From NCBI GenBank assembly GCA_963710125.1, contig CAVPZH010000016.1, positions 72,915 through 136,914 of the forward strand: 64,000 bases of DNA, written 5' to 3'. How positions within the stretch are numbered: the stretch's first letter is position 1; every line of letters begins with the position of its first letter. A program made the translations under genes and the position numbers. This document shows, piece by piece, positions 6,415 to 61,806 of this stretch. The stretch comes from an uncultured Actinomycetes bacterium. GTDB lineage: Bacteria; Actinomycetota; Thermoleophilia; Gaiellales; Gaiellaceae. Under the pieces are notes generated by a model. It was not told the origin of the DNA. It was given only the letters and a program-made list of their open reading frames with translations, and searched no databases.

Positions 6415-7245
6415 ATGATGGACGCCGGCAGCGTCTACCAGCGCCTCTTCGACGTCCGCGACGCCCGCATCGTCGTCACCGGGGCCGCCAGCGGCCTCGG
6501 GTTCGCGATGGCCGAGGTGCTCGCCGAGTGCGGCGCGCGCGTGACGCTCGCCGACGTCGACGTCGCGCGGCTCGAGTCGTCGACCGCGTCGCTCGCCGAG
6601 CGGGGGCTGGACGCGCGCTCGGTCGTCGTCGACGTGTCGGACGAGGCGAGCGTGGAGGCGCTCGTCGAGGACGTCGTCGCGACCGAGGGACGCCTCGACG
6701 TCGTGTTCGCCAACGCCGGGATCGCCTCCCGGCCGGGGTTCGGCGTCGAGGGCGGGCAGCGGCTCGACACGGTCGAGCGCTCCGACTGGGACCGGGTGCT
6801 GGGCGTGAACCTGAACGGCGTCCTCTTCACGCTCAAGCACGCCGCCGCCGCGATGCGACGTCAGGGGTCGGGCCGGATCGTCGTGACGTCCTCCAACGCC
6901 GGCCTGCGCCCGGAGCCGGAGGTCTGCTACGGGTACGTCGCCAGCAAGGCCGCGATCCTCAACGTCGTCCGCATGGCGGCGCTCGAGCTCGCGCCGCACG
7001 GCGTGCTCGTCAACGCGATCTGCCCGGGCCCGTTCAAGGGGACGAGGATCGGAGGCGGCGTGACGGAGGATCCGACGCCGGAGCTGGAGCACATGTGGGC
7101 GAGGACGGTTCCGCTCGGGCGCATGGCGGAGCCCGACGAGCTCAAGGGGCTCGTCCTGTTGCTCGCGTCGCCCGCCTCGAGCTTCATGACCGGGGCCGCG
7201 TACCTGGTCGACGGAGGCACGCTCGTGCTCGCCGGCAGTACGTGA
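6415..7245 (+). CDS. SDR-family short-chain dehydrogenase/reductase
   Basis: TGAASGLG cofactor motif, NAG motif, and YVASKAA catalytic Tyr/Lys block. Confidence 0.9.
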   Translation: MMDAGSVYQRLFDVRDARIVVTGAASGLGFAMAEVLAECGARVTLADVDVARLESSTASLAERGLDARSVVVDVSDEASVEALVEDVVATEGRLDVVFANAGIASRPGFGVEGGQRLDTVERSDWDRVLGVNLNGVLFTLKHAAAAMRRQGSGRIVVTSSNAGLRPEPEVCYGYVASKAAILNVVRMAALELAPHGVLVNAICPGPFKGTRIGGGVTEDPTPELEHMWARTVPLGRMAEPDELKGLVLLLASPASSFMTGAAYLVDGGTLVLAGST

Positions 7246-7333
7246 ACGGGCTTCCGGAGACGCCCCGCCGGCGCACGAAACTCGTTCGCGGACGGACAAG
7301 ATCGCGGTCGGGGGAGGCAGTAGGATCGCGGCG

Positions 7334-31821: not shown

Positions 31822-32832
31822 ATGCGCCACTTCAGGCGGCTCACGGCGTCGTGGCCGGCGCGCATCGGTGTCGCGCTGCTCCTCGCAGTGGCGATCGCGG
31901 CGACCGCGAGGCTCCTGGTCGAGCGCGGCACGGAGACCGCCCCGCCGCCGCCGACGGAGACCTCGCCGCCTCCCACGAGCCCTCCCCCTCCTCCGACCAC
32001 GACGGCTCCCCCTCCTCCGACCACGACGGCTCCCTCTCCGCCGACTGAGCCGACCCCACCGCCGCCCGCGGCCGTGCCGTTCTCCTGGAGCTCGGCCGGC
32101 GCTTTCGTCTGGCACGAGACCGACCTGGAGCCGACGCTGCTGGGTCGCGTGCTGCGCGAGGCCGGCTTCGGGTGGGTCGCCGTGAGGCTCCATGACGGCC
32201 TCGACGAGGACCCCGTCGAGGCCGACTGGGTGTACCGCTTCCGGCTCGCGAGTGGGCTCCCCGTCGGCGGCTGGGGTGTCCTCCGCACGGATCCCGAGGG
32301 TGAGGCCGCGCTCGCCAGCTCGCTCGTCGAGCGCTACGGCCTCGACTTCTACATCGCGAACCCCGAGGTCGAGTACGAGTTCAGCGGCGCCGACGGTCCG
32401 AGCGCGGAGCGGAGCGGCCGGTCGGCACGCTTCGTCCAGGCGTTCCGCACGCTGCGGCCGGCGCCGTTCCCGGCAGGGCTCTCCTCGTACTGCCGGCCCG
32501 ACCGCCACGACATCGACTGGGCGGCCTGGCGGCAGGCGGGCTTCGCATTTCTCCCCGAGGCGTACGTGAACGACATCGGCGCCGACGGCGCACCGGCATC
32601 GTGCGTCGAAGGCGCGCGCGGCGTCTTTCCTCGTGCGGAGATCCATCCCACGATCGGCATGCACGTGGGTCGTCGAGGCTCGCTCGACGTCGGCACCTAC
32701 GTCGAGTTGCTCGCCCAGGCCGGGACGCTCGGCTTCTCGGTGTACCTCGCGGAGACGCGTATGACGGACGCAGACTGGCAGGCCCTCGGGGCCGCGATCG
32801 CCGCGCGGGGGATCGCAGCCCCGATCGGATGA
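31822..32832 (+). CDS. Membrane-anchored protein with a Pro/Thr-rich linker and an uncharacterised extracytoplasmic domain
   Basis: N-terminal TM segment (WPARIGVALLLAVAIAATARLLV), then PPPPTETSPPPTSPPPPPTTTAPPPPTTTAP.., then a 240-aa globular part with good codon usage. I do not recognise a family with confidence. Confidence 0.7.
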   Translation: MRHFRRLTASWPARIGVALLLAVAIAATARLLVERGTETAPPPPTETSPPPTSPPPPPTTTAPPPPTTTAPSPPTEPTPPPPAAVPFSWSSAGAFVWHETDLEPTLLGRVLREAGFGWVAVRLHDGLDEDPVEADWVYRFRLASGLPVGGWGVLRTDPEGEAALASSLVERYGLDFYIANPEVEYEFSGADGPSAERSGRSARFVQAFRTLRPAPFPAGLSSYCRPDRHDIDWAAWRQAGFAFLPEAYVNDIGADGAPASCVEGARGVFPRAEIHPTIGMHVGRRGSLDVGTYVELLAQAGTLGFSVYLAETRMTDADWQALGAAIAARGIAAPIG

Positions 32833-33006
32833 CCCTTTCGAGCGGTCGAGAGGCAGTCAGAACCAGGACCTGAGCCGGATACATCCCTCGAACGTGCGGT
32901 TCGAGCCCCCCTTGCGGGGGATGAGCCGTGCGGGGAGCGCTGCCTATGGTGTGCGTCAACCGGCACTGCCGGCCAGGCGGCAACACAGGGGAGGGAGTGC
33001 GGGGCC

Positions 33007-34631
33007 ATGGATTCGCGGCGTGATGATCGCCGGACGTCGACTCGACGCCGCATGCGGGAGCTCGCGGCGATCGGAGCCGCGCTCCTCGTCGTGCCGCTCG
33101 CCGCGCTCGCCGGACTGAAGATCCCGATCGACGCAGGCGCCCTGGCACCGGTCTTCACCCTTCCGCACAGCGCCCTCGGCCATGTGCGCTCCGCGGCGTC
33201 CGGAATCGTGCAGCTCGCCCGTCCCGGCGAAGCCCCCGGCCCGGACGACCCACTCGCAGCCGCGCATGGCGGGCGAGGGCTGCGCACCGCGCCCATGCGG
33301 CCCCCCGAACGGGAGGCGGGCTGGACCGCGTTCGTGGCGGCGCCCCCCGCCCCCGCGGGGCCGGCGCAGGCACGCGAGGCCCCGCACGGCGATGCTCCAG
33401 ACCATCACTCGGGCTCGTCCGGCTTCCCGGGTGAGCCGCTGCGTCCGCCCGCCAGGTACCGGGACGACTACCCGGCCCCGGCCGCCCCGAACGCGGGTGG
33501 CCGTCCGGCTGCTGCGCCGACCGCGCCGGTCGCGGGCACGGGCGGCCCGACGCCCGACCGCACCCCGCGGGCGAAGGGCAGCGCTCCCGCCGACACCGGC
33601 GTACCGGTCGGCCCCGTCGACGACGTCATCCCTCCGCCGCCCCCTACCGGCGACGCGCACGGCTCGCTCCCGTCCCCGCCGGCCGGAACCGCGGACGACG
33701 GACACGTCGCCGGGTCACAGGGGACGGACGAGGGCCACCCGGTCGAGGGCGGTGGAGACTCCGGCCAGGGCTCGCAGACGCCGGGTCCTGCCGGGCCAGC
33801 CGACGGGGGTGAGGCCGGTGCCGGTCAGGAGCTCGACGCGCCGCCCGACCCGGACGCGACCGACGGCGACGGCCAGCCCGCCGACGAGGTCGGCGACCAG
33901 GATCAGGGCGGCGAGCCCGAGGCCGGACACGAGCCCGGCGAGGGCGGCGACCACGGGAACGGGAACGGGAACGGGAACGGGAACGGGAACGGGAACGGGA
34001 ACGGCGAACGGGAACGGGCAACGGCCACGGCGAAGGTGGAGACGGCCACGGCCGGGGTGGCGGCGGCGAGCACGGCGGAGACCACGGTCACGGCGACAGC
34101 CACGGGCACGAGCACGGTCAGGGTCACGGAGCCGACGGGAACGACCACGGCACGAGCGGCGGCGATGACGGCGACGGCCACGATGCGGGACCGGCGCATG
34201 ACGGCGACGCGCAGGGAGCGGACGGCGACGGCGACGGTGCCGACGGTGAGGAAGCTGCCGGGCACGGCCGGGGCAACGGAAATGGCGACGGGAACGGCAA
34301 CAGCCAGGGCGACGAGCACAGCAAGGGTCAGGGCAACGGCAACGGCCAGGGCGACGAGCAGGGCAACAGCCATGACCAAGGCAACGGCAACAGCCAGGGG
34401 AACGGGAAGGGCCAGGGCGACGAGCACGGCAACGGTCAGGGCAATGGGAACGGCAACGACCAGCGCGACGAGCAGGGCGACAGCCATGACCAAGGCGACG
34501 GCAACAGCCAGGGCAACGGCAACGGCCGGGCGACGGGCGAGGACGCGGTGCTCGCGGGGCCGCTCGTGCTCATGGCGCTCGTCGGATGCGGTGGTCGCCG
34601 TCGTCTCGTCACCGGACGGAAGGCGTCGTGA
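33007..34631 (+). CDS. Low-complexity His/Asn/Gly/Asp-rich envelope protein with N- and C-terminal hydrophobic anchors. As sequenced it needs a net frame change at 34006-34019.
   Basis: Frame 1 from the ATG at 33007 gives a TM/signal segment (LAAIGAALLVVPLAALAGL), a P/A/G-rich then acidic region, and ..GDHGNGNGNGNG. After extra bases g34006 and c34019 the same theme continues in frame 3 with preferred GC3 codons (NGHGEGGDGHG..HGHGDSHGHEHGQGHG..GNGNSQGDEH..). That frame has no start codon for about 200 codons. It ends AVLAGPLVLMALVGCGGRRRLVTGRKAS* with a TGA at 34629-34631 overlapping the next gene's GTG. Confidence 0.55.
33955..34002 (+). repeat. Perfect hexanucleotide microsatellite (GGGAAC)x8, encoding (Gly-Asn)8
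   Basis: Eight uninterrupted GGGAAC units were counted directly. They are followed by degenerate units containing the two frame-breaking extra bases. Confidence 0.95.
34290..34530 (+). repeat. Imperfect 42-60-nt coding repeats (GNGNSQGDEH / GNGNGQGDEQGNSHDQ units)
   Basis: Recurrent GGCAACGGCAACAGCCAGGGCGACGAGCA-type units read in frame 3. The antisense strand gives an artefactual hydrophobic ORF (33903..34493). Confidence 0.8.
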
Positions 34632-36628
34632 TCTTCGGCCGGCGCGACAGGACGCCCTCGAGGCCCTCCCCCCGGCTCGTCCTGCGCTTCACCCTCTTCA
34701 CCGGAGCCGCGCTCGCGATCGCGAGCGCCGTGATCTTCGTGATGGTGCGCAGCTTCGTGACGGCGCAGGCGCAGGATGCCGTGGAGCAGAACACGCGGTT
34801 CGTGGCCCAGGCGGTCCTCGCCCGTCGACTGACGCCCGCCGACTTCACGGGGCCCATCTCCCCGAGACGACGTGCGGCGCTCGAGCGCCTGTTCCGACAG
34901 CAGGTGATGATCGAGGACATCGAGTCTGCGGCGCTCTATCGCGCCGACGGCCTGCGGACGTTCGGGACGACGAAGCGCGGGGTCGGAGGCGAGCTCGGCC
35001 CCCTCGACCGTGGAGCGGTGCGTTCGACGCTCGGCGGGCAACGCATTCGCACCGCCGTGGTGAAGGAGCGCGCGTCCGGCGGCGCCTCGCGAACCGTCAT
35101 GCAGCAGCTCGTGCCGATCTGGTTCGGCGACCGCGCGGCAGGCGTCCTGGTGACCGAGCGGGACTACGCTCCGATCGCGCGGTCGGTGAGAGCGACCTTC
35201 GTCCCCATCGCGCTCGTGCTCGAGGGGCTCCTGCTCGCGCTGTTCATCTCGCTCTTCCCGGTGCTCCGGCGCGCGACGCGCCAGATCGACTCGCACATGG
35301 AGGAGATCGAGCACCAGGCGCTGCACGACAGTCTGACCGGCCTCCCGAACCGGGTGCTGTTCCAGGACCGGATCGAGGTCGCGCTCGCGAACGCGCGCCG
35401 CAACGGAGGAAAGGCGGCGGTCCTGATCCTGGACCTCGACGGCTTCAAGGAGATCAACGACGCGCTGGGCCACGCCAGTGGCGACGAGCTCCTCCGAGAG
35501 CTCGCCGTTCGACTCCGGGGCACGCTCAGAGACACCGACACCGTCGCTCGCCTCGGCGGAGACGAGTTCGGCATCGTGATGCCCGCCGACGGCGAGGACG
35601 ACGTGCGCGAGACCGCCCTGCGCGTCCACGACGCCGTCGAGGAGCCCTTCGAGATCGGTGGGGTCGCGCTCGCGGTGAAGACGTCCGTCGGCGGCGTCCT
35701 CTTCCCCGACGACGCGACGGACTCGGACACCCTCGTGCGCTTCGCGGACGTCGCGATGTACGCCGCCAAGCGCAACCGGAGCCGTATCGAGCTCTACACC
35801 CCGGCGGCTGACGTCTCGAGCCGCGAGTCGCTGACGCTCGGCAGCGAGCTGAGGCGCGCGCTCGACGAGGGCGACATCGTGGCCCACTACCAGCCCAAGG
35901 TCGACGTCGCGACCGGCCGCGTCGTCGGCGCCGAGGCACTCGTCCGCTGGGACCATCCCGAGCGCGGCCTCGTGCTTCCCGCGCAGTTCCTTCCGCTGGT
36001 CGAGAAGGCCGGTCTGACCGGGTCGCTCACGACGCTCGTGCTCCGCGAGGCGACCGCGGAGGCGGCGGAGTGGGCGCGCCAGGGTCTCCACCTGGGCATC
36101 GCGGTCAACGTCGACGTCCACGCCCTGCTCGATCGGTCGTTCCCGGGGCGTGTGGAGCAGATCCTCGACGAGATGGGGCTTCCAGCCGAGCTGCTCACGA
36201 TCGAGCTCACCGAGACGTCGCTGATGGCCGACCCGGTTCGTGCGGGAGCCGTCGCCCGGGAGCTCTCCGCGATCGGGGTGCGGCTGGCGATCGACGACTT
36301 CGGCACCGGCTACTCGTCGCTCGGGCACCTGACGGCGCTCCCGCTCGCCGAGCTCAAGATCGACCGGTCGTTCGTGGGCCGGATGGCGGAGAGCCCCACC
36401 GACATGGCGATCGTGCGCACGATTCTCGACCTCGGCACCAATCTCCAGCTGTCCGTCGTCGCCGAGGGAATCGAGTCGCGCGGCACGAGGGCGATCCTCG
36501 AGCAGCTCGGGTGCGGGCTCGCGCAGGGCTACGAGTTCGGGCGGCCGATGCCGGCCGCGGCGCTGACCGCCTCTCTGGTGGCGTCCCGGCAGAAGAGCAC
36601 GGCCACCGTGCTGCGCCTCACCGCCTAG
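34628..36628 (+). CDS. Membrane-bound sensor with GGDEF (diguanylate cyclase) and EAL (phosphodiesterase) domains
   Basis: The GTG at 34628 overlaps the frame-3 stop (GTGA). It has two TM segments flanking a domain of about 170 aa. The motifs are LGGDEFGIVM, GAEALVRW, the DDFGTGYSSL block and QGYEFGRP. Confidence 0.85.
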   Translation: MIFGRRDRTPSRPSPRLVLRFTLFTGAALAIASAVIFVMVRSFVTAQAQDAVEQNTRFVAQAVLARRLTPADFTGPISPRRRAALERLFRQQVMIEDIESAALYRADGLRTFGTTKRGVGGELGPLDRGAVRSTLGGQRIRTAVVKERASGGASRTVMQQLVPIWFGDRAAGVLVTERDYAPIARSVRATFVPIALVLEGLLLALFISLFPVLRRATRQIDSHMEEIEHQALHDSLTGLPNRVLFQDRIEVALANARRNGGKAAVLILDLDGFKEINDALGHASGDELLRELAVRLRGTLRDTDTVARLGGDEFGIVMPADGEDDVRETALRVHDAVEEPFEIGGVALAVKTSVGGVLFPDDATDSDTLVRFADVAMYAAKRNRSRIELYTPAADVSSRESLTLGSELRRALDEGDIVAHYQPKVDVATGRVVGAEALVRWDHPERGLVLPAQFLPLVEKAGLTGSLTTLVLREATAEAAEWARQGLHLGIAVNVDVHALLDRSFPGRVEQILDEMGLPAELLTIELTETSLMADPVRAGAVARELSAIGVRLAIDDFGTGYSSLGHLTALPLAELKIDRSFVGRMAESPTDMAIVRTILDLGTNLQLSVVAEGIESRGTRAILEQLGCGLAQGYEFGRPMPAAALTASLVASRQKSTATVLRLTA

Positions 36629-46646: not shown

Positions 46647-47084
46647 AAGAGCTCGCTTTGTCGGCAGGCGGCGTGGAGCGACCACGTCGAGAGGCTCTCG
46701 CTGATCTCGCCGAACCGCGATAACGACGAGCTGCCACCTTGCAGGCGGCGCTCTCGTTGGTGACGCTGCGCTTGATGGCGCGGATCACATGGTTGATGCC
46801 GATGTTCGTGATCGCCCTCGGCTTCGCAGTGCATCCGCCGGCCCTGGCAAGCCCGGCGGTTGATAGAGGCGGCACTGCGGACACGCCGACCAGCTTGATC
46901 CCCGTGTCGCTGACGGCGGTGCGTGAAGCTCCGTCGAGGACGTTCGAGCGCGCGCTGAGAGCGAACGTGCTTGCGTTCGACAACCCCAGGGCAGTCCTCC
47001 GGAATCGGTGAAGGCGCTGGATCCACGCCCACCGGCCGGATCACAATCGGTTGAGACGTGGGCATCGCGGAAGATTCACAGGCG

Positions 47085-47288
47085 ATGACCCCGCGAGGCC
47101 CGCGCTGGCTGCTGTGGACACTCGTCCCGTGCGCCGTCGTGGTTATCGGAATCGCTGTCTACGAATACAACAAGCCGCACAGGCCAGACGATCCTGTTCT
47201 CAGAGCCATCCTGGCGGAGCGCCTTGCTTCGATTTCACCGCTGGGAGGTCGGCTCGTGTTCGCTTCTCAGAACGAGACAAGCTCTTAG
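47085..47288 (+). CDS. Small membrane protein, hypothetical (possibly the 5' part of a frameshifted longer gene)
   Basis: TM segment WLLWTLVPCAVVVIGIAVY. Locally lower GC. A plausible continuation (..ERDKLLEITPEGGLRFNMSADEPDEPEP..) lies in another frame. Confidence 0.3.
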   Translation: MTPRGPRWLLWTLVPCAVVVIGIAVYEYNKPHRPDDPVLRAILAERLASISPLGGRLVFASQNETSS

Positions 47289-47553
47289 AGATCACGCCCG
47301 AAGGTGGCTTGCGGTTCAACATGTCGGCCGACGAACCCGACGAACCCGAACCCACGGGGTTCGCAGTTCCGAGCCACGTTCAAGTGAAGGAAGACCAGCG
47401 CGGCGCGGGCCGCGCGGGGCCACCGTGCCGGGTGGCGCCCCGCGCCAGCCGCCCCCGCGCCGAGCCTCCCACCACTCGAGCACCGCAACGCACACTCGCC
47501 CACGTGGGTGGATCGCGCCCAGCGGATTGCGCGTTGTTGGTACGAATCCCCGC

Positions 47554-48112
47554 GTGACCGACAATGCGCCAGAGCAGCTCGCCGCCCACCTCGATGCGGC
47601 CGGAGTCTTGGGCGGTTCGTCCGATGCCGAGCGCGAGCGACTCCGTAGCAACGTCGCGGCGGGCGCATCACCGTTTGTCGGAGTTGAGCGGTCCGGTGGC
47701 GCGCCGACGGGGAAGACTTGGCCGAGGGTGAAGTCGAGTCCCTCTTGGATTCGATGGCTCCTGCTCTTGCTGAGAGAGGAGTCAATCTCGCCGTCGAGAC
47801 GATCGAAGGGCCATGGGACGAGGTAAGCGCGAGCTACAAGATCCGGATCAACGGCATCGAGGTCGACCTATATCGATTCGATCCGGATGAGCCCAACGTT
47901 CCGCTCGCCGATGATCCCTGGATCGATGCACGCTCAAGCCCCTGGCAGTCGCTAATTCCCTCCTGATGGAGGCTGGCGCTCGCGACAGGGTGGCCGTCAT
48001 TTCAGCTGGGGGGAACGACGGCACGGCGTTCCTGCTCCCGGTTGAAGCTCTTGCCGTTCAGGTGGAATCGCCGGCACTTGAGCCGGAGGAGCGTCCGGCA
48101 GTTCCCGAGTAA
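47554..48112 (+). pseudogene. Unknown-function gene split over three frames (two apparent 1-nt deletions)
   Basis: The pieces are VTDNAPEQLAAHLDAAGVLGGSSDAERERLRSNVAAG.. (frame 1), ..DGEDLAEGEVESLLDSMAPALAERGVNLAVETIEGPWDEVSASYKIRINGIEVDLYRFDPDEPNVPLADDPWI.. (frame 0) and ..CTLKPLAVANSLLMEAGARDRVAVISAGGNDGTAFLLPVEAL..* (frame 2). They read on smoothly across the junctions near 47690 and 47920. Confidence 0.35.
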
Positions 48113-49674: not shown

Positions 49675-51090
49675 AGTTCGGGGATCATGAGGTTGTCCCA
49701 TTGCTCGTAGAACTTGACGGCGGTCCCTCCGGCCTCGTCCGTTCCGCTGGGGAGCGGGCGAGGCGATCCGTCGAAGCTTGAAGGAGGAGCCGCCATGAAG
49801 AAGACAGCCGTAGACGTCGCGCAGGCCGAGCTGATAGAGGAGGCGCTGCCGGCTCACGTGCAGGAGGCGCTCGGGGAGCTTGCCGTCGCTGCGAGGGAGG
49901 GGTTGCTGGCCTTGTCGGTCGGCGTCGGACTCGGTGTCCTCGCCGAACTGATGGAAGAAGAAGTCGTCGACGTGGTTGGTGCGAAGGGTAAGCACGATCT
50001 GGATCGGACCGCCGTCCGCCACGGCCGCGAGGCGGGCGAAGTGACGCTCGGCGGTCGCCGCGTTGGGGTCGAGCGCCCGCGAGTCCGGTCGGCCGACGGG
50101 AAGAGCGAGGTGCCACTTACGACCTACCGGCACTTCAGTGACCGTGATCCGCTGACACGGGGTGGTGTTGGAGCGGATGCTTGCCGGCGTCTCGACTCGC
50201 CGCTACCGACGCACGCAGGAGCCGATCGGCGAGCAGGTCGAGCAGCGGGCTCGCTCGACATCGAAGTCATCCATCTCACGCGCGTTCGTTGAGCGCACCG
50301 GCAAGGCGCTCGACGAGCTGATGGCGCGCCGCCTCAACGACGTTCGCCTGGCGGTGCTGATGCTGGACGGAATTGAGCTCAAAGGGCGCACGAACATCGT
50401 CGCGCTCGGGATCACGACAGAAGGAGTGAAGGTCCCGCTCGGGCTGTGGGAGGGCTCGACCGAGAACGCGACCGTGGCGACCGCGCTCCTGTCGGATCTC
50501 GTCGAACGCGGCCTCGATCCCGCGCAGGGGATGTTGTTCGTGATCGACGGCTCAAAAGCACTACGCAAGGCGATCCGGACGGTGTTCGGTGAGGGGGTGC
50601 CGGTTCAGCGCTGCGTCTGCCACAAGGAGCGGAATGTGCTCGAGCATCTGCCCGAGCGCGACCGAGCCGCGATCAAACACCGGTTGCGCCAAGCCTGGGC
50701 GCTTGAAGATCACGGCCAGGCGCTTGACCGGCTGAAGGCCCTCGACGCCGAGCTTGAGCGGAGCCACCCCGGCGCCGCGGCCTCGCTGCGGGAGGGGATC
50801 ACCGAGACGCTGACGCTCACCCGCCTCGGCATCACCGGCTCGTTGAAGCGGACGCTCGCCTCGACCAACCCGTGCGAGTCGATGATCGAGTGCGTTCGCC
50901 GCACCAGCCGCAACGTCAAGCGCTGGCGGTCAGGCGAGATGGCGCTGCGTTGGACGGCCGCCGGGATGCTCGAAGCCGAACGCCAATTCCGCCGGATCAT
51001 CGGCTACCGCGACCTCGCCAGCCTCGCCGTCGTGATAGAGCGTGACCTCGCTCGCACGACCGTCCCGTCCCGGACCGAGGAGGCCGGCGC
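49675..51090 (+). mobile_element. IS256-family element: left inverted repeat plus transposase gene, lacking its own right end
   Basis: The left end (about 49675-49735) is an inverted match to 54340-54390 (GATCATGAGGTTGTCCCATTGCTCGTAGAACTTGACGGCGGTCCC versus the reverse complement GATCCCGAGGATGTCCCGTTCGTCGTGGAACTTCGTGACGCCGGTCCC). Transposase homology stops at about 51090. Confidence 0.75.
49795..51090 (+). pseudogene. IS256-family (Mutator-like) transposase, frameshifted in a GGGG run at 50159-50162 and 3'-truncated
   Basis: The N-terminal piece MKKTAVDVAQAELIEEALPAHVQEALGELA...TTYRHFSDRDPLTR continues in the next frame as VVLERMLAGVSTRRYRR...MLDGIELKGR..CVCHKERNVLEHLP..STNPCESMIE..RWTAAGMLEAERQFRRIIGYRDL. 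The listed ORF end at 51160 is read-through into non-IS DNA. Confidence 0.8.
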
Positions 51091-51223
51091 GGCGCAGAGG
51101 CGGGCACCGGCGGCTCCTTTCGCTCCGGCAAACGCAGGCGGGGGTGATCGAGGCGGGTGAGCAACGCTTCGCCGAGGCGCGGCCGCGCTTGTCGTGGTTT
51201 GCGATGCGATCTAGCCTCGTACC

Positions 51224-54205
51224 GTGCCGGTTTGCCCGAGCTGTGGCCACGACAATCGCGAGGGCGCGAAGTTCTGCGAGGAGTGTGGCTTCTCGTTCAG
51301 CGCTGCGCCCGCGCGGACGACGGAGCAGCGAAGGACGGTCACCGTCCTTTTCTGCGACGTGACCGGGTCGACCGCCCTCGGTGAGACGCTCGACCCCGAA
51401 CGGCTGCGGGCGCTGCTTGCCCGCTACTTCGAGCGGATGAAGGCGATCGTCGAGTCGCACGGCGGCACGGTGGAGAAGTTCATCGGCGACGCTGTGATGG
51501 CGGTGTTCGGCATCCCCGCGGCGCACGAGGACGACGCCCTGCGCGCGGTCCGTGCGGCAGTCGAGATGCGTGACACGCTCCCCGAGGTCGGCCTCCAGGG
51601 GCGCATCGGCGTGACGACGGGCGAGGTCGTGACGGGAACCGAGGAACGGCTGGCGACGGGCGACGCGGTCAACGTTGCCGCCCGCCTGGAGCAAGCGGCA
51701 CGACCGGGCGAGGTGTTGCTCGGTGAGCCGACCGTCCAGCTCGTGCGCGGAGCGGTCGAGCTGAGCGCAGGCGAACCCTTGGAGCTGAAAGGCAAGGCCG
51801 AGCCCGTCTCCGTCTACCGCCTGTTCGCAGTGCGCGACGCACCCGAGCGACTTCACGACATGCCCTTCGTCGGTCGGGAACGGGAGCTCACCCTCCTGCG
51901 CGCCGCGTGGGAACGCGCTCGGACCGGGCAGCGCTGCGAGCTCGTGACCGTGGTCGGCGAAGCCGGCGTCGGCAAGTCGCGCCTCGTCGCCGAGGCGCTT
52001 GCCTCCCTCGACGCGACCATCGCGCGTGGCCGCTGCCTTCCGTACGGCGAGGGAATCACGTACTGGCCGGTCGTGGAGGTGCTCAAGCAGCTCGACGTGA
52101 CGCCGCCCGACGAAACCGCGGCACTCGCGATCCGCGCTCTGCTCGGGGAGGCGGAGGCCATGTCGTCACCCGAAGAGATCGCGTGGGCGTTCCGCAAGAC
52201 GCTCGAGCACGCTGGGGAGGACCGTCCGCTGATCGTCGTGTTCGACGACATCCAGTGGGGCGAGGAGACGTTCCGCGACCTGATCGAGCATGTGGCGCTG
52301 CTCTCGACTGGCGTCTCGCTCCTCCTGCTCTGCATGGCTCGGCCGGAGCTCGTGGAGCGCCGCCCGACCTGGCCCGTCACGGTGCTTCTCGAGCCACTTC
52401 GCGACGAGGCGTTGGCCGAGCTGATTCCGAAGCGGATCGCAGGCGACCTGCGCGCACGAATCGCCCGGGCAGCCGGCGGCAACCCGCTTTTCGTGAGCGA
52501 GATGCTCGCGATCGCGGGCGATGGCAACGGTGCAGTCGCCGTCCCGCCGACGCTGCAAGCACTCCTCGCCGCACGCCTCGACCAGCTCCAGCCCCCCGAG
52601 CGAGGCGTACTCGAGCACGCATCGGTCGAAGGCGAGATCTTCCATCGTGGCGCCGTGCAGGCCCTCGGGCTTGACGACGCCCAGGTGACGCCGCACCTCG
52701 CCGCGCTCGTCCGCAAGGGCTTGATCCAGCCCGACCGCGCTCAGCTCGCGGGCGAGGACGGCTTCCGGTTCCGCCACCTGCTCATCCGCGACGCCGCGTA
52801 CGACGCCCTCCCCAAGACTGCTCGCGCCGCCCTTCACCAGCAGCTTGCCGGCTGGCTCGAGAAGCACGCGCGCGATCTCGTCGAGCTCGACGAGATCGTC
52901 GGCCATCACCTCGAGCAGGCCCTGCGGTACCGCACGGACGTCGGACTGCCCGAGGACGGCGCGCTCGCAGCCGCGGCGTGCATGCGGCTCAAGAGTGCCG
53001 GCCAGCGCGCGGCTCGTCGCTCGGACTACGAAGCTGCCGCCCGGCTCTTCGAGCGAGCGGCTGCGCTCCTGCCGCCGTCCGAGGTCGACATCGCCCTGGA
53101 GAGCGACCTCACGCAGGTTCTGTCCTGGACCGGCCGCCGCGAGGACGCGGTTCGCCGCGCAGATGTCGTCGCCGAGCGCTTCACGGCGACGGGCAACCGG
53201 GTCGGCGAGCTCACTGCAACGATCCGGGCGGCTGCCGTCCGTCTCGACCTCGAGCCCGAGGCGGAAATTGAGCGGCTGGACGGACTCCTTGCGGAAGCGC
53301 TGCCCGAGCTCGAGGCGGCGGGCGACGAGCTATCGCTGTACGTCGCCTACGGGGCGCTCGGAGATGTAGCGGACGCGCGCGGGCGTGTCGACGGCGCGCT
53401 GGAGGCGTACGAGCGCGCGTACGACCATGCTCGCCGCGCAGGGTACGAGCCGTTCTGGATGCTGGGATTAATCGCGTGGGCTCGCTGCTTCGGCACCACC
53501 CCGGTCTTGGATCTCCTCGCTTGGCTCGACGAGAACGAGGCTCGCGCGGGGCCGGACCAGTTTTTCCGGGCGTACCGGGCCTGGTCGCTCGCCAAGCTGG
53601 GCCGGTTCGACGACGCGCGTGGGATCCTCGTCGTCGCACGTACGCACCAGGCGGACCGCGGTGGGGGGCTCCTGCTGGCGAACCTGATCGCCTTCGAGTC
53701 CGCCTCCGTGGAGCTCCTCGCCGGGGACCCCGACGCTGCCGTCGCATTCGGCATGGAGGGCTGCCGGCTCCATGAAGAGCTCGGCGAGCACGACTTTCTC
53801 GCGGCCTCGAGCGGAGTTCTGGCGCAGGCGCTCTACGCGCTCGACCGCCTGAACGAGGCGGAGGTGTGGGCCGCGCGTTCGGCCGAGCTCGCTCGGGGCA
53901 ATTATTCAGCGGTTACCGATTGGCGCTCGGTGCGCGCCAAGCTACTCGCCCGCCGCGGAGACCACTCTGAGGCACGTCTGCTGGCAGCGGAAGCAGTCAG
54001 GATCGCCGACGACACAGACGTGCTCGACCGGCAGGGAGACACCTATGCCGACCTCGCCGAGGTGCTCGTGCTCGCCGGGAGGGGCGACGAAGCGGTCACG
54101 GCGCTCGAGCAGGCGATCGAGCGCTACGAGCGCAAGGGCAACATCGTGTCGACGCAGCGAGCGCAGTCCCGACTCGCCGAGCTTCAGGATGCAGCGCCGC
54201 GATGA
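51224..54205 (+). CDS. Zinc-ribbon / class III adenylate-guanylate cyclase / AAA+ (STAND-type) ATPase / TPR-like repeat protein
   Basis: 993 aa with CPSCGHDNREGAKFCEECG, cyclase blocks VLFCDVTGSTAL..KFIGDAVMAVFG..VNVAARLE, the P-loop GEAGVGKSRL and a long helical-repeat C-terminus. No HTH output domain was recognised. Confidence 0.9.
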   Translation: MPVCPSCGHDNREGAKFCEECGFSFSAAPARTTEQRRTVTVLFCDVTGSTALGETLDPERLRALLARYFERMKAIVESHGGTVEKFIGDAVMAVFGIPAAHEDDALRAVRAAVEMRDTLPEVGLQGRIGVTTGEVVTGTEERLATGDAVNVAARLEQAARPGEVLLGEPTVQLVRGAVELSAGEPLELKGKAEPVSVYRLFAVRDAPERLHDMPFVGRERELTLLRAAWERARTGQRCELVTVVGEAGVGKSRLVAEALASLDATIARGRCLPYGEGITYWPVVEVLKQLDVTPPDETAALAIRALLGEAEAMSSPEEIAWAFRKTLEHAGEDRPLIVVFDDIQWGEETFRDLIEHVALLSTGVSLLLLCMARPELVERRPTWPVTVLLEPLRDEALAELIPKRIAGDLRARIARAAGGNPLFVSEMLAIAGDGNGAVAVPPTLQALLAARLDQLQPPERGVLEHASVEGEIFHRGAVQALGLDDAQVTPHLAALVRKGLIQPDRAQLAGEDGFRFRHLLIRDAAYDALPKTARAALHQQLAGWLEKHARDLVELDEIVGHHLEQALRYRTDVGLPEDGALAAAACMRLKSAGQRAARRSDYEAAARLFERAAALLPPSEVDIALESDLTQVLSWTGRREDAVRRADVVAERFTATGNRVGELTATIRAAAVRLDLEPEAEIERLDGLLAEALPELEAAGDELSLYVAYGALGDVADARGRVDGALEAYERAYDHARRAGYEPFWMLGLIAWARCFGTTPVLDLLAWLDENEARAGPDQFFRAYRAWSLAKLGRFDDARGILVVARTHQADRGGGLLLANLIAFESASVELLAGDPDAAVAFGMEGCRLHEELGEHDFLAASSGVLAQALYALDRLNEAEVWAARSAELARGNYSAVTDWRSVRAKLLARRGDHSEARLLAAEAVRIADDTDVLDRQGDTYADLAEVLVLAGRGDEAVTALEQAIERYERKGNIVSTQRAQSRLAELQDAAPR

Positions 54206-54217
54206 GCCTTCAGTCGT

Positions 54218-54390
54218 ACCAGTGCGCTGTCGTAAAGCTCGCCGTCGTGTAGAGGGCGAGCTCGCTCGCACGACCGTCCCATCCCCGACCGAGGAGGCCG
54301 CTATCCTTGTCACCCGCCTGACCTTCACACCGGGACCGGCGTCACGAAGTTCCACGACGAACGGGACATCCTCGGGATCATTCCTGAACT
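54218..54390 (+). mobile_element. IS256-family right-end fragment (last about 25 transposase codons plus right inverted repeat)
   Basis: 54238-54300 repeats 51023-51090 at roughly 88% identity (..CTCGCCGTCGTG.TAGAG..CTCGCTCGCACGACCGTCCC.TCCC..ACCGAGGAGGCCG). The fragment then continues into the sequence that is inverted-repeat to the left end. Confidence 0.7.
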
Positions 54391-57450: not shown

Positions 57451-58118
57451 TGAACGCCCCGATCCGAATCCTCATCGCCGACGACCATCCACTCTTCCGA
57501 TCGGGCCTCCGCGCTCTACTCGATTCGGTCGCCGACACCGAAGTCGTTGGAGAGGCTGCAACAGGCGAGGAGGCCGTCGAGATAGCACTGGCACTCACTC
57601 CGGACGTCGTCGTGATGGACATCAACATGCCCGGCCTCAACGGCATCGACGCCACCCGCGACATCCTCGACGAATCGGAAGACATCAATATCCTCGTGAT
57701 GACGATGCACGACGATGACGACGCTGTCTTCGCCGCCATCCGAGCCGGCGCACGCGGCTACCAGCTAAAAGGAGCCGCACAAAACGAAACGCTCCGCGCG
57801 ATCCGCTCTGTCGCCAATGGCGAAGCCATCTTCGGCCCAGGGATCGCCGACCGGCTCCAGCACTTCCTCGCCGCGCCACCCGCCAGAAACCCCAACCTCG
57901 CGTTCCCGCAACTCACCGATCGGGAACTCCAGATCCTCCAACTCCTCGCACAGCACAAGACCAACGCGGCGATAGCCGCCGAACTCTTCCTGAGCCAAAA
58001 AACCGTCCGCAACTACGTCTCAGCCATCTTCGCCAAACTCCAGGTCGCCGACCGCGCAGAGGCCGGACTCCTCGCTCGCACAGCAGGCCTCGGCGATCCA
58101 GGACCCGTGGGTCGCTAG
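57450..58118 (+). CDS. NarL/LuxR-family response regulator
   Basis: Receiver ILIADDHPLFRSGLRALL..VVVMDINMPG.. and HTH LTDRELQILQLLAQHKTNAAIAAELFLSQKTVRNYVSAIFAKLQV. Confidence 0.9.
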   Translation: MNAPIRILIADDHPLFRSGLRALLDSVADTEVVGEAATGEEAVEIALALTPDVVVMDINMPGLNGIDATRDILDESEDINILVMTMHDDDDAVFAAIRAGARGYQLKGAAQNETLRAIRSVANGEAIFGPGIADRLQHFLAAPPARNPNLAFPQLTDRELQILQLLAQHKTNAAIAAELFLSQKTVRNYVSAIFAKLQVADRAEAGLLARTAGLGDPGPVGR

Positions 58119-58405
58119 GTCGACCGAGCCGACGCACAGATCCGGCGTTCGTGTTCTGTTACTGGCACGGTTTGTACCCCTGTTCCCCGCTTCTCCGACC
58201 ACTTCGGTTCGCATTGCGGAGGGTCGGCCCACCTCTTGCCATCAGGAACACGCTCGCCCGCGCGAGGCACCGACCCGACTCGAGGGTACCCACCTCACCA
58301 GAGATCCGCGGAGCGAGGCGGCTTTTTGCATGGGCCGGTGTTTGCGAATGTCCCGAGCTTCCGCTTACTGCGGCGGAAGCACGTGGAGTCCGCCGCTCTG
58401 CGCGG

Positions 58406-59044
58406 CTAGCGAAGAGCCTGCTCGAACCGCGGGTCGTCGCGTACGGCAGCGAAATCGTCGTCCCTGCGTGCCTGCTCGCGGAAGGATGGGTGCAGCTCCA
58501 CTGACCGCCGGAGGTGGGCGAACGTTTCGTCGCCGGAATCGCCCGCGAGCGTGGCGAAGCACGCGTAGTTGTAATTGAGGCCGGGGTGGTCCGGCATGTG
58601 CTCGAGGCCACCGCGAACCGCTTCGACTGCGTCCGTATAGCGCTGCTCACCGTAGGCGGCCATCGAGTCTCGATGGAACGGCCACGCGTCACCCCAGTCG
58701 AGCGCCTGGTACGCCTCGCCGGGGGTGGCGCCGAGAGCGAGGACAGTTCCGTCGCCCGTCGCCTTCCGCTGCGACCCGGGCCGGACGAAGACGAATGTTC
58801 CTGCGGGCGCGTCGACCGTCTCGCCGTCGATCTCGAAGGTCGCGTTCCCGTCGAGCACGATGTACAGCTCTTCCTGACCCGAGCCCGACTCGTCATGCTT
58901 GCTGATGAGTGTCCCGCCCTCGCCAGGCGTGTAGGCGTTGATTCCGAATGCGCGGATCCCGAAGTGCTCACGTACGGGGATGTCTCTGTCGCGCCGCTCG
59001 ATGTCGTCGAGGCGCGCCACCTGCCAATTCGAATTGTCGTCCAT
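58406..59044 (-). CDS. Cupin-domain protein with a helical (TPR-like) C-terminal extension
   Basis: GINAYTPGEGGTLISKHDESGSGQEELYIVLDGNATFEIDGETVDAPAGTFVFV. The start is chosen at MDDNSNW. Confidence 0.7.
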   Translation of the reverse strand: MDDNSNWQVARLDDIERRDRDIPVREHFGIRAFGINAYTPGEGGTLISKHDESGSGQEELYIVLDGNATFEIDGETVDAPAGTFVFVRPGSQRKATGDGTVLALGATPGEAYQALDWGDAWPFHRDSMAAYGEQRYTDAVEAVRGGLEHMPDHPGLNYNYACFATLAGDSGDETFAHLRRSVELHPSFREQARRDDDFAAVRDDPRFEQALR

Positions 59045-59307
59045 CCAGCCTCCCCTCAAGCGCGGGTCCCTGGGAACGGCCGATCCTACTCGCCGTCGGG
59101 TGACTCCCTGACGAGTGACCCGCTCGAGCTTCCCGTGCGCTGCGCACGCAAGCCACATCCGCGGCCGTCCGCGGCCTTCCTTGGGGCGAGAGAGCTACCG
59201 ACCGGCCCCGAGACTTTGGGAGAGGCTCGCGATTTGGCACGGATTGGGCACGCTCCGTGACCGATTTGTAGCCTGTCGTCCACACCAATGTCGAGGAGGC
59301 CACGGGC

Positions 59308-59745
59308 ATGGGCACGCCGAGTGAGCAAGACCAGGTGATAACGGCGTTTCTCCGACAGGCGGACGAGCCAGAGGGCGTGAGCACACTCGAAGGTCAGCGG
59401 TACTGGGAACTCGCCGGAAACGAGCTCGGACGGATTATTTCGAGCCTGGGCGGCACCCCGTTGACCGCAACAGCCGCCGGTGAGCCTGCGTTGCTTTGCC
59501 TTGGTGAACACGGTGCCGCGATTGTCACCATCCGTGGCAACAGCTTCGTTGTGCACCGCGTCCGACGCGGAGCCGGCCCTATCAGCATCCGTGAAAGCGG
59601 CCCCATGCTGGCGGAGTTCAGCGAACGTGACTGCAACATCGAGATCGACGTGCCGGGGCTCCCCGGGCCGATCGTTGTCAGCGGACTCTCGCAAGCCGAC
59701 CTTCAGGGACGCCGCGACGCGATCTTTTCGGCGTTAGCGGACTGA
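59308..59745 (+). CDS. Hypothetical protein
   Basis: 145 aa, with GAGGAGG upstream of the ATG and a balanced composition. No family was recognised. Confidence 0.5.
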   Translation: MGTPSEQDQVITAFLRQADEPEGVSTLEGQRYWELAGNELGRIISSLGGTPLTATAAGEPALLCLGEHGAAIVTIRGNSFVVHRVRRGAGPISIRESGPMLAEFSERDCNIEIDVPGLPGPIVVSGLSQADLQGRRDAIFSALAD

Positions 59746-60015
59746 ACGCGGATTGAGAGCGTCTTAGCGACACCTTCGCCTCTCCTTCGCGAGCAGCGCC
59801 CCAGCGGATCGGTGCCAGGACTGGCCCGCAATTCCCGCCCCGACGCAAGGAACGCCGCGCATCCCGCTGCCAGTCGCCGCCGCGCGCTGACGGCGCGATG
59901 TGCGGCCCCGGTGCCGGCCCGCCGTTCTCAGGCCCTCCTGGGCCATCCTCGCACGCCTAGGAGCACCTCGCTGAGAGACGCCGCGAAGCACCTGGAGGCT
60001 CCGGCGCTCTCCGGT

Positions 60016-60327
60016 CTACCCGCGGGAAATCAGGTTGTGCAGCTCGTAGGAGGCGTCGCGATCGGGGGGCATGTTGCTGCCGGCTCCCAGCTTCGCCTCC
60101 AGCGCGGGCTGTAGCCGCTCGCGCCGGAACCTTTCCGAGTCCTCGTGGGTCTCCCACACCTCCAGCACCCGGAAGACACCGCCCTCCTCATCCCATCCCG
60201 CCGTGTGGACGATCATTCCGTCTGGAGGGTTCGTATCCAAGCTGAGATGCTCGCTGACGGCGTCGTAGTTCGTGGTCGACCGGTCATCACCAGCGATCTT
60301 GAACTCCTGAAGAACCACGAAGGGCAT
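60016..60327 (-). CDS. Small dimeric alpha/beta-barrel (ABM-like) protein, hypothetical
   Basis: 103 aa with ..MIVHTAGWDEEGGVFRVLEVWETHEDSERFRRERLQPAL.. The pattern is typical of this fold. Confidence 0.55.
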   Translation of the reverse strand: MPFVVLQEFKIAGDDRSTTNYDAVSEHLSLDTNPPDGMIVHTAGWDEEGGVFRVLEVWETHEDSERFRRERLQPALEAKLGAGSNMPPDRDASYELHNLISRG

Positions 60328-60481
60328 ACGGCTCCTCCTCGATCGGGAACCGCAAGCCTACGCCCGCGCCGAGCTCCCTCGCCCCGCGATCGACATCCCC
60401 CGGGCTATCGGAGTCCCTGCCCAAGCCGCCCGCCGTGCTCGGCGAGGAGGACGCCGCCGAGCGACCTGGCCTGGCTAGTCG

Positions 60482-60727
60482 TCAGATCGACTCTCGGAGT
60501 GCGTTTGCCGCGGCTTGCAGACGTTCACTGACGTCGGCTAGCTCTCGTGCCGCGATGTCCATGCGTTCTTGCTGCGCGTCCGAGCGTTCGTGTTGGCGGT
60601 CAGCGCGTCTCTGTTCGCTCTCGGCGCGTTCGTTGCTCTCGCTGAGCCGTTCCTCCATCGTGGCGACGATGCGAGTGAGTTCAGCCACCTGCGCAGCGAT
60701 GCTGGCGATGTCCGCTTCGGAGGTCAC
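60482..60727 (-). CDS. Small coiled-coil protein, hypothetical
   Basis: (V)TSEADIASIAAQVAELTRIVATMEERLSESNERAESEQRRADRQHERSDAQQERMDIAARELADVSERLQAAANALRESI. The start is uncertain. Confidence 0.3.
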   Translation of the reverse strand: MTSEADIASIAAQVAELTRIVATMEERLSESNERAESEQRRADRQHERSDAQQERMDIAARELADVSERLQAAANALRESI

Positions 60728-61545: not shown

Positions 61546-61806
61546 GTGCGGAGATTTGTGTACAAGATCGAGCCCGCCTCGCTGATCCCCGGCGATGCGG
61601 AGTACATCTTCGAGTCGGAAGAAGAGCTCAAGGCCGGGGACATCGTCGAGCGCGTAGGTCGTCGTCTGTTCATCGAACGAGTCGAAGACGACGACCCCGG
61701 TTGGGAGACGGAGACCGAGACCAGCGCAATCAGCAGAACGCTTCACTGCTACCTCGAGGTCGACCCTGACGCGTGGCCGGGGGAGGAAGACTGGGCGGGA
61801 GCCTAG
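61546..61806 (+). CDS. Acidic small protein, hypothetical
   Basis: 86 aa with a GTG start. It is preceded by a 56-codon ORF (61368..61538). No family was recognised. Confidence 0.4.
   Translation: MRRFVYKIEPASLIPGDAEYIFESEEELKAGDIVERVGRRLFIERVEDDDPGWETETETSAISRTLHCYLEVDPDAWPGEEDWAGA

Follow-up and report, generated by a model that had tools for sequence, protein, structure and literature searches.

The open-reading-frame track of the window, by which we mean the whole 64,000-nucleotide stretch of DNA analysed here, contains a frame-1 open reading frame (ORF) of 934 amino acids at 33007..35811 on the + strand (as are all features below, unless stated otherwise). This raises the question of whether the locus encodes that long product or a shorter envelope protein whose second part lies in another frame, and, in the latter case, how the frame came to be broken. 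The ORF is present as the sequence-only reading had described it: its translation gives a plausible protein through (GN)8 and thereafter ERERATATAKVETATAG..., turning TATATAR-like and overlapping the downstream GGDEF-EAL gene out of frame for ~1.18 kb. Equally visible is the frame 3 of that description, open without an early start, continuing the Gly-Asn theme and ending in a hydrophobic helix, an RRR tail and a GTGA overlap with the next gene. This frame is open from 33813 to 34628 with no stop in 272 codons, and its earliest start codon is a GTG at 34548, 27 codons before the stop. Removing bases 34006 and 34019 in silico results in a single ORF of 540 amino acids.

Frame-specific codon statistics gave a divided answer. 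GC content by codon position switches phase at ~34000, with a frame-3 GC3 of 0.78-0.90 and GC2 of 0.43-0.58, favouring frame 3 from there on; codon log-likelihood was equivocal over 34020-34200, with frame 1 (+10 to +14) not rejected, frame 3 at -1 to +7 and a minus-strand frame also positive, and it prefers frame 3 only beyond ~34260. Given the ambiguous codon score and the frequency of long open frames at 70.6 % GC, the frame could not be decided by composition alone; orthology decides it. The positive frame-1 and minus-strand scores, together with the frequency of spurious long ORFs at this GC content, would suit an explanation in which frame 3 is non-coding and owes its openness to high GC and codon-like repeats, the true product being the 934-aa ORF or an antisense ORF at 33903-34493. 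We regard this as extremely improbable. No orthologue contains anything like frame 1 past 34020, and further on that frame also runs out of phase into the well-supported GGDEF-EAL gene; the antisense ORF mirrors the GGC AAC periodicity and lacks independent support; and frame 3 ends as all intact orthologues do, in a C-terminal helix, a basic tail and a stop/start overlap.

These orthologues (L001, L003, L005, L008 and L012/P0008) are Gaiella-type loci, each with one uninterrupted ORF of 449-498 aa, and they have the N-terminal 70 residues and an AVLAxPLL...RRxR end in common. The N-terminal ~70 residues are conserved across 9 loci, with 32 invariant columns, and the family consensus of the juxtamembrane segment reads GLKLPLDAxGVLAPIFDLPRxAFGHVRSA; at another locus, L004, just a 47-aa remnant of the gene is kept. 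In this comparison of related genomes, the frame-3 C-terminus is conserved at all five uninterrupted loci, and the locus is, as judged from sequence, a single gene with conserved ends and intact orthologues. The earlier proposal of one anchored envelope protein of ~540 aa, its C-terminal 204 codons lying in frame 3, is borne out by orthologues that end alike at both termini.

The gene at 33007-34631 consists of two written parts. A Shine-Dalgarno-like GGAGGGAG (32990..32997, read from the sequence) precedes the ATG at 33007 by 9 nt. The frame-1 part, 333 codons at 33007..34005 supported by translation and N-terminal conservation, comprises in order an Arg-rich cytoplasmic N-terminus, a membrane helix, a juxtamembrane motif, an acidic, Pro/Ala/Gly/Asp-rich disordered region and the GN repeat. 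Its predicted transmembrane helix, LAAIGAALLVVPLAALAGL (33061..33117), follows RRTSTRRRMRE; 19-residue Kyte-Doolittle windows exceed 1.6 at residues 16-26, and AlphaFold2 (AF2) places a helix at residues 2-34. The adjoining segment KIPIDAGALAPVFTLPHSALGHVRSAASGIVQL (33118..33216) is conserved in two family alignments. The frame-3 part, 203 codons plus TGA at 34020..34631, is supported by translation, by C-terminal alignment with the intact orthologues and by GC3 phase. It starts with a His/Gly/Asp-rich stretch, whose His-rich segment HGEGGDGHGRGGGGEHGGDHGHGDSHGHEHGQGHG (34026..34130, from translation) is strain-specific and shows no family-wide conservation, and continues with degenerate tandem repeats of GNGNSQGDEH(G/S)-type units (34272..34535; periods 18, 66 and 114 nt), for which TRF reports period 114, 2.4 copies and a score of 362. 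It closes with a C-terminal hydrophobic helix, AVLAGPLVLMALVGCGG (34545..34595), which aligns with the orthologues' AVLASPLLLLALAGC and which AF2 models as a helix at residues 517-525, and with a basic cytoplasmic tail, RRRLVTGRKAS (34596..34631 including the TGA at 34629-34631), whose stop shares bases with the GTG start of the following gene (GTGA, 34628-34631). Such a gene would give a ~540-aa protein with a membrane anchor at either end, each formed by a hydrophobic helix next to an Arg-rich cytoplasmic segment. The extracytoplasmic loop of ~450 aa that joins the two helices is predicted to be intrinsically disordered; it is strongly acidic and has a high content of Gly, Asn, Gln and Pro, with His added in the window's strain.

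The frame switch was expected just past a perfect hexanucleotide repeat, through two extra bases 13 nt apart, and could be located there. The repeat, (GGGAAC)8 at 33955..34002, encodes (GN)8 and was recovered both by repeat finding and by direct reading; downstream of it the sequence runs GGC-g-AAC GGG AAC GGG-c-AAC GGC. The first extra base, at 34006 (GGC-g-AAC, equivalently C 34005 inside GG-c-G), takes frame 1 into frame 2. It is followed by four codons, AAC GGG AAC GGG (NGNG, 34007..34018), that translate in phase only in frame 2, and the second extra base, at 34019 (GGG-c-AAC), takes frame 2 into frame 3. Both bases fall at the third position of a Gly GGG/GGC codon. The frame-corrected junction peptide is GNGNGNGHGEGG, as against ERERATATAK in frame 1.

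Close relatives from metagenomes pass through this region in one frame. In Illumina data, an X1/X2 contig continues window 33920-33974 as A CAG GGC GAC GAG CAC GGC AAC GGC CAG GG, in frame-1 phase, and a second X1 contig leads from GAC GAG CAC GGC AAC GGC CAG GGC AAC into window 34017-34323, in frame-3 phase; combined, the two read ..GNGNG-QGDEHGNGQGN-GNGHGEGG.. in a single frame. Contigs from X7 and X9 that match 33982-34031 have an identical GGC/GGG pattern and exactly two 1-base gaps, at both extra bases, and their flanks, NGNANGQGQG and NAGLVLPLAL, share one frame. Among the Logan contigs of 16 runs, none spanning 34003-34022 carried the extra bases. The search for sequencing runs turned up none with the window's own reads; the best contained 0.33-0.48 of the sampled words and represented 95-99 % relatives, and none was labelled Nanopore. 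Four proteins of the window, looked up by exact sequence, had no match on record. Only 4 loci came back when metagenomes were scanned with the family alignment, and 3 of these were cut off within the repeats.

The relatives bridging the break carry a different repeat structure there and so are not the same allele. Repeat structure varies among strains, co-occurring strains included, and the loop diverges by ~6 % as compared with ~1.5 % in the flanks. One contig joint (33972->34410), which could be read as a deletion that 'skips 437', was rejected as such, since 31 nt of the relative's differing repeat unit had aligned to a similar downstream unit; frame 1 stays in phase with frame 3 under either placement. 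In the undisputed frame-1 part, the gene differs from its relatives by 23 non-synonymous and 7 synonymous changes, a count that is uninformative here, as the loop evolves with hardly any constraint.

A second gene in the window is broken in a similar way. The gene at 1-872, for a Peripla_BP_6 binding protein, likewise needs frames 1, 2 and 3, and in four Illumina runs the matching contigs (~98 % identical) are all one base shorter at 294/298 and again at 623/627. Once corrected, the protein matches Peripla_BP_6 continuously over both sites (7e-11). As 14 of its 17 substitutions are synonymous (the other 3 are conservative), this gene is under selection and no decayed pseudogene. All but one of the five single-base insertions observed lie in or right after a G run (GGCG, GGGC, GGGGC, GGGCG). 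Over the ~60 kb compared with Illumina relatives, only the binding-protein gene has single-base indels inside coding sequence away from gene ends, the remainder lying at gene ends or in non-coding DNA. The GATC beside both binding-protein insertions was considered as a methylation-linked error cue and dropped, GATC occurring every 121 nt in the window. By a simple count, the 2 + 2 split of four frameshifts over two genes has a probability of ~0.001 for independent random errors; as artefacts, the four would require locally correlated errors, while a pseudogene would gain its second hit neutrally. The window is otherwise clean, and this placement of its indels is what real evolution would be expected to produce.

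Whether a copy of the target gene is intact or broken is associated with assembly technology, as judged by contig names alone (k141_ or JGI names counting as short-read-style). Short-read-style contigs hold four complete copies, all intact (L001, L003, L008, L012), while three of the four copies on long-read-style contigs are frameshifted (L002, L010, L011), at differing, non-homologous positions: L002 breaks at CAG GGG-c-AAC, L010 needs ~8 frame hops and has a broken histidine kinase too, and in L011 the GGDEF-EAL gene is also broken. The MFD MAGs are Nanopore-only, with Flye assembly and one Medaka round (PMC12313526). The indel errors of long-read-only assemblies of this type (Nanopore, Flye + Medaka) resemble what we see in the window, namely single-base insertions in or after G runs and consecutive frames without a start, in a gene that is also split in the three long-read-style copies and intact in the short-read ones, with a second window gene likewise affected. 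They differ in that the window has just 4 such changes in 64 kb, clustered 2 + 2 and all insertions. Nanopore homopolymer errors are more often deletions.

Together, the intact orthologues, the in-phase relatives, the X7/X9 gaps, the second broken gene, the technology association, the G-run context and the lack of decay in frame 3 suggest that the frame break is probably a consensus error of the assembly in a hypervariable repeat. We infer that the extra bases 34006 and 34019 would be consensus errors within a G-rich, strain-variable hexamer repeat. Of the three causes that the sequence-only reading had set side by side, mis-assembly fits best, pseudogenisation is possible and frame-switching is not supported.

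Pseudogenisation would mean that the extra bases are real mutations and that the gene is inactivated in this strain, as a recent pseudogene or null allele, with an aberrant or truncated frame-1 product running into GGDEF-EAL and the coupling lost. We consider this less likely, if far from negligible. Relative to the Illumina relatives, indels concentrate in non-coding DNA, which implies a low apparent assembly error rate; a spread of errors regardless of coding status, as expected of an artefact, was not observed over ~60 kb, and this keeps the explanation alive. Paired frameshifts in two genes would also be expected if each second hit were neutral, and the locus is labile, given the L004 remnant, the strain-variable repeats and the divergence of the loop. 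On the other hand, two independent +1 insertions 13 nt apart, at Gly third positions, are improbable in nature, and the homologous X7/X9 contig keeps the 12 nt between the two sites, which argues against a single block insertion. The 204 downstream codons show no other decay and the coupling site is kept; an analogous insertion pair sits in the binding-protein gene, with its mostly synonymous substitutions; and frameshifts track long-read-style assemblies, some of which have broken essential-looking neighbours.

The break adjoins a perfect repeat and the open frame 3 bears the conserved C-terminus, as would be the case if ribosomes changed frame at the GN repeat or immediately past it, by two +1 shifts or a single -1 shift, and so produced the full-length protein from the unaltered sequence. 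The +1 shift of prfB, the -1 shift of dnaX and the IS3-family transposases likewise spread a protein over two frames, with a downstream frame that has no start codon. Programmed recoding is nevertheless highly unlikely here: no X XXY YYZ heptamer occurs in any phase within 33800-34030, no stimulator was seen, and the shift sites (codons GGC, GAA, CGG) have no prfB-type stop codon. Two separate +1 shifts 13 nt apart would be required. Nor is the shift conserved, as the five orthologues and the close relatives use one frame and the L002, L010 and L011 breaks lie at non-homologous positions.

For annotation, the 934-aa ORF is wrong; the locus is better entered as a single membrane protein of ~540 aa, flagged for a probable sequence error, or else, for the time being, as a frameshifted gene. 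In terms of method, low-complexity, strain-variable G-rich repeats appear to be spots where metagenome assemblies break genes, and a second broken gene in the window, combined with short-read relatives, can reveal errors without the original reads.

The family to which this protein belongs is tiny, unannotated and restricted to Gaiellales. Relatives were found only through the juxtamembrane segment, as 10 representative proteins among 1.84 billion; a set of 5.8 billion proteins gave 6 hits only, and those with a name are called 'hypothetical protein'. Neither the merged protein nor the L005 orthologue matches a Pfam or NCBIfam family at E <= 1, and an Rfam search within the window found nothing. 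Acidity, richness in Gly, Asn, Gln and Pro, and disorder are the conserved properties of the family. AF2, run on the single sequence, models the terminal helices only, at a mean pLDDT of 41, a low confidence that is consistent with disorder and no proof of it. With a hydrophobic helix and then an Arg-rich tail at its very end, this secreted low-complexity protein has the last two elements of the LPXTG/sortase, PEP-CTERM/exosortase, GlyGly-CTERM/rhombosortase and PGF-CTERM/archaeosortase signals. It differs from proteins with such signals in having no LPXTG/LAXTG or other recognisable motif before the helix and no processing enzyme identified near its gene, and four C-terminal tails gave no match to the NCBIfam sorting-signal models even at E <= 10.

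The sequence-only reading had also pictured the protein as a metal-binding 'sponge'. As a conserved family role this is not supported by the alignments: His makes up 5.2 % of the window copy vs 2.1-2.8 % of the five orthologues, and D<->H swaps occur among relatives at positions of the His segment, so that His-richness appears specific to the window's strain. Helicobacter Hpn is an example of a histidine-rich metal-binding protein. Mycobacterial PacL1 is described as a Zn-binding chaperone-like protein with a metal-binding motif that zinc resistance requires together with the P-ATPase CtpC (bioRxiv 10.1101/2021.10.01.462712). The window protein is like these binders in being low-complexity, His/Asp/Glu-rich, membrane-anchored and encoded beside a candidate membrane partner in an actinobacterial lineage; it differs in showing no sequence similarity, in being His-rich in one strain only, and in having a c-di-GMP enzyme as partner, not a transporter, and any metal binding is putative.

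That partner gene (34628..36628, start GTG 34628) encodes 666 aa with GGDEF (1.7e-44) and EAL (6.6e-67) Pfam matches, both motifs intact, and a ~150-aa extracytoplasmic segment set between two predicted membrane helices. Its orthologues are 74-80 % identical and always lie directly downstream. The suggestion that the two genes form a translationally coupled pair held up well, the stop/start overlap being found in 6/6 loci examined, as GTGA, ATGA or TGATG in the intact orthologues; the envelope gene would thus be translated together with the GGDEF-EAL gene that begins on its stop codon. Our search for literature on Gaiella and c-di-GMP, or on His-rich disordered cyclase partners, found nothing specific. 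YfiB and YfiR are accessory envelope partners of the cyclase YfiN, and the present pair is similar in that a small envelope protein shares an operon with a GGDEF-type enzyme that sits in the membrane and has an extracytoplasmic segment; in the present case, tight coupling is also conserved. It is dissimilar in lacking homology and in that the window partner is a disordered, doubly anchored loop, not a folded domain; the interaction is putative.

As a tentative guess, the protein may act as an accessory partner of the GGDEF-EAL enzyme: its polyanionic loop would bind cations or the cell envelope and tune the enzyme's extracytoplasmic sensor part. More speculatively still, and whatever the cause of the frame break, it could stand for an undescribed class of c-di-GMP-enzyme partner, namely a disordered, polyanionic extracytoplasmic loop that is anchored as a hairpin and translated together with a GGDEF-EAL sensor in the membrane. 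Its repeats would vary fast between strains (copy number, D<->H swaps, His-rich inserts), tuning surface properties or the sensing of cations or metals. If the extra bases were real, the repeat would additionally be a strain-level on/off site for the gene pair. A small unannotated Gaiellales family always coupled to one c-di-GMP enzyme offers a modest lead for signalling in uncultured soil actinobacteria. A Shine-Dalgarno-like GGAAGG for the GGDEF-EAL gene lies at 34618..34623, within the end of the frame-3 coding part, and GGAGAG occupies the equivalent place in L002, L003, L005 and L008.

The target gene at window positions 33007–34631 (+) starts with an ATG in frame 1 at 33007, with GGAGGGAG just upstream, and its translation opens with MDSRRDDRRTSTRRRMRE, followed by a hydrophobic helix, LAAIGAALLVVPLAALAGL. 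Frame 1 then continues through a long Pro/Ala/Gly/Asp-rich stretch into (GN)8, whose coding sequence is a perfect (GGGAAC)8 repeat at 33955–34002 that was identified by repeat search and direct reading. After the repeat, the sequence reads GGC-g-AAC GGG AAC GGG-c-AAC GGC CAC, the extra bases being 34006 and 34019, and the four codons between them encode NGNG in frame 2 alone. From 34020, frame 3 reads NGHGEGGDGHG..., then GNGNSQGDEH-type repeats, and closes with AVLAGPLVLMALVGCGG-RRRLVTGRKAS and a TGA (34629–34631) overlapping the GTG (34628) of the c-di-GMP enzyme gene, GGDEF-EAL (+). Past the break, frame 1 is TATATA-type sequence up to 35811, out of frame over GGDEF-EAL.

Our re-reading of the frames, repeat, C-terminal helix with RRR tail and TGA/GTG overlap showed that the sequence-only reading had described this locus accurately, including the absence of a start in frame 3 until near its stop: frame 3, open from 33813, offers no start codon until 27 codons before the stop. 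Removing bases 34006 and 34019 in silico gives a single 540-aa ORF. The codon-usage check suggested with that reading succeeded in part, as GC content by codon position switches phase at ~34000, as frame 3 would predict, but a codon-likelihood score does not tell frames 1 and 3 apart before ~34260, so that, in DNA of 70.6% GC, composition by itself does not settle the frame.

A search with the GGDEF-EAL protein turned up five syntenic loci from Gaiella-type MAGs (74–80% identical). The gene 5′ of GGDEF-EAL is one uninterrupted ORF in three loci from related genomes (L001, L003 and L005), as well as on a JGI contig (L008) and an ENA contig (L012; predicted protein P0008, 449 aa). Alignments show that the intact orthologues share an Arg-rich start, a helix and the juxtamembrane motif GLKLPLDAxGVLAPIFDLPRxAFGHVRSA, followed by a long middle region, acidic and of low complexity, with GN/GQ repeats, and by a common C-terminal end, AVLAxPLLLLALAGCxRRxRLxRxRRAA. 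These orthologues thus carry both conserved ends in one ORF, rather than an early stop, and the hidden frame 3 is real coding sequence for the same protein as frame 1, as had been proposed. Proposed translational coupling to GGDEF-EAL also holds, since the target-gene stop overlaps or touches the GGDEF-EAL start in all six loci examined (GTGA, ATGA or TGATG), with a Shine–Dalgarno-like GGAGAG or GGAAGG just 5′ of that start. Gene order is conserved: PAS histidine kinase, 336-aa membrane protein, target gene, GGDEF-EAL and, on the opposite strand, a Na+/H+ exchanger. The 336-aa neighbour (31822–32832, +) is membrane-anchored, has a Pro/Thr-rich linker and belongs to no Pfam family; in relatives, this linker carries a 24-nt in-frame deletion (at 32012). 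In L004 (Gaiella MAG SMAG_U3776, 5852–5995), the target gene is a 47-aa ORF in which the Arg-rich start leads straight into the C-terminal helix and tail; the loop is missing entirely, through either deletion or collapse in assembly.

Run searches turned up no reads of the window itself, but closer relatives (95–99%) were available from Illumina wetland and soil metagenomes, as Logan contigs only. In runs X1 and X2, an 86-nt contig spans 33920–33974 and continues A CAG GGC GAC GAG CAC GGC AAC GGC CAG GG in frame-1 phase, while a 322-nt contig of X1 opens GAC GAG CAC GGC AAC GGC CAG GGC AAC and runs into 34017–34323 in frame-3 phase, implying that this strain reads ...GNGNG-QGDEHGNGQGN-GNGHGEGG... 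in one frame. Contigs of runs X7 and X9 matching 33982–34031 show the same GGC/GGG pattern with exactly two gaps of 1 base, one at each extra base, and their flanks share one frame (NGNANGQGQG before, NAGLVLPLAL after). None of the runs examined, in contigs inspected across the break, contained the junction with the extra bases; because the repeat region varies between strains, these contigs do not represent the window's own allele.

Of the three explanations offered earlier for the break, mis-assembly fares best on this indirect evidence: we consider it probably a consensus artefact. Judging assembly technology by contig names, complete copies of the target gene are intact in four of four cases on contigs with k141_ names or from JGI, and the gene is broken in three of four 'contig_N'-style long-read assemblies. 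L002 has a CAG GGG-c-AAC frameshift and is among the MFD MAGs, which are Nanopore-only Flye assemblies with one round of Medaka polishing (PMC12313526). The target gene of L010 (ENA ERZ25039549 contig_89569; 96.4% identical to the window) has ~8 frame hops and its histidine kinase is broken too; in L011 (ENA ERZ25039545 contig_56416), target gene, GGDEF-EAL and 336-aa gene are all broken. Both are long contigs of the same lineage, rich in frameshifts, and predicted proteins in public sets, such as P0007 and P0011, are frame-shifted chimeras. Of the five single-base insertions seen, four lie within or immediately behind a G run, and all three in the target-gene family occupy the third position of a Gly codon where GGG/GGC varies among strains, as expected if heterogeneous reads were merged into one consensus.

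When the entire window was scanned frame by frame, unexplained frame switches appeared in just one other gene; the remaining flagged points are ordinary gene ends or starts. This periplasmic binding-protein gene (Peripla_BP_6; 1–872, +), cut at the window start, runs through frames 1, 2 and 3 in turn owing to one extra base near 298 and another near 627. At precisely these two switch points (294/298 and 623/627), the ~98%-identical contigs from four Illumina runs are each one base short, and the protein, once corrected, matches Peripla_BP_6 without interruption through both sites. With each segment read in its own frame, 14 of 17 substitutions against relatives are synonymous and three conservative, unlike a gene dead long enough to gather two frameshifts.

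Recent inactivation of the target gene by a strain-specific null mutation is the main alternative but appears less likely, as signs of decay are absent from frame 3, the coupling site is preserved and the breaks track long-read-style assemblies. In its favour, the other single-base indels against Illumina relatives (~60 kb) are all confined to gene ends and non-coding DNA, like true divergence, implying that the window assembly is generally accurate. Moreover, four frameshifts distributed two and two over two genes would hardly arise from independent random errors, leaving two possibilities: errors correlated over short distances, plausible where strains vary in sequence, or true mutations. 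Programmed frameshifting yielding full-length protein from the sequence as written is very unlikely: it needs two separate +1 shifts, neither a slippery heptamer nor a stimulatory codon is present, and no orthologue conserves the shift.

At each end of the protein, a hydrophobic helix is bordered by Arg-rich segments, which, by the positive-inside rule, mark the cytoplasmic side; both termini would thus be cytoplasmic, with the ~450-aa middle looped outside the membrane. Across the family, this loop, computed without the conserved membrane-proximal segments, contains 19–27% Gly, 15–19% Asp+Glu, 10–14% Pro and 3–6% hydrophobic residues, and the net charge of the full-length proteins ranges from −31 to −55. 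Single-sequence AF2 predicts only the terminal helices (pLDDT <50 elsewhere), consistent with an intrinsically disordered loop. No Pfam or NCBIfam model matches the protein, nor do sorting-signal models match the C-terminal tails. The family is tiny, with 10 representatives among 1.84 billion proteins and six matches in a 5.8-billion set, where the sole named ones are hypothetical proteins, one from Gaiella sp.

The loop-coding region (33400–34630) is hypervariable, diverging by ~6% from close relatives versus ~1.5% in flanking genes (~4× faster), through mostly non-synonymous changes, including G↔C changes that swap Asp and His, and through in-frame repeat gains and losses, including 12-nt indels. 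Histidine makes up 5.2% of the window copy versus 2.1–2.8% in orthologues, Asp and His are exchanged at single positions among relatives, and a Cys...Cys + HNPNHHGG segment of most orthologues is absent from the window copy. His-richness is thus confined to the window strain, and the suggested 'metal sponge' is not supported as a conserved role; metal binding by this variant is possible. Tentatively, the polyanionic loop would bind cations or the envelope and, produced in a constant ratio to the GGDEF-EAL enzyme, would modulate that enzyme's ~150-aa extracytoplasmic segment. The finding chiefly corrects the annotation and also gives a minor lead to an undescribed partner for a Gaiellales c-di-GMP enzyme.

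Elsewhere in the window, the X1/X2 relatives lack a 4.7-kb segment (49681–54373; contig joint 49680→54374) that contains a truncated Mutator-family transposase (50156–51157) and a 996-aa adenylate/guanylate cyclase-AAA-TPR protein (51215–54202) and is probably a strain-specific insertion; 46972–47745 and 59294–60016 are also window-specific. The region ~58000–62200 looks like non-coding or decayed DNA, having lower GC (64–67%), no clear coding periodicity and many 1–2-base indels against relatives, with 12 gaps in 60017–61969. At 7243–7300, relatives have an additional C after 7248, exactly at a gene junction where the window offers the downstream frame no start codon at ≤90 nt from the upstream stop; an indel may therefore affect the start of this gene. 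GATC occurs 528 times in the whole window (1 per 121 nt), ~3× the ~170 expected from base composition.
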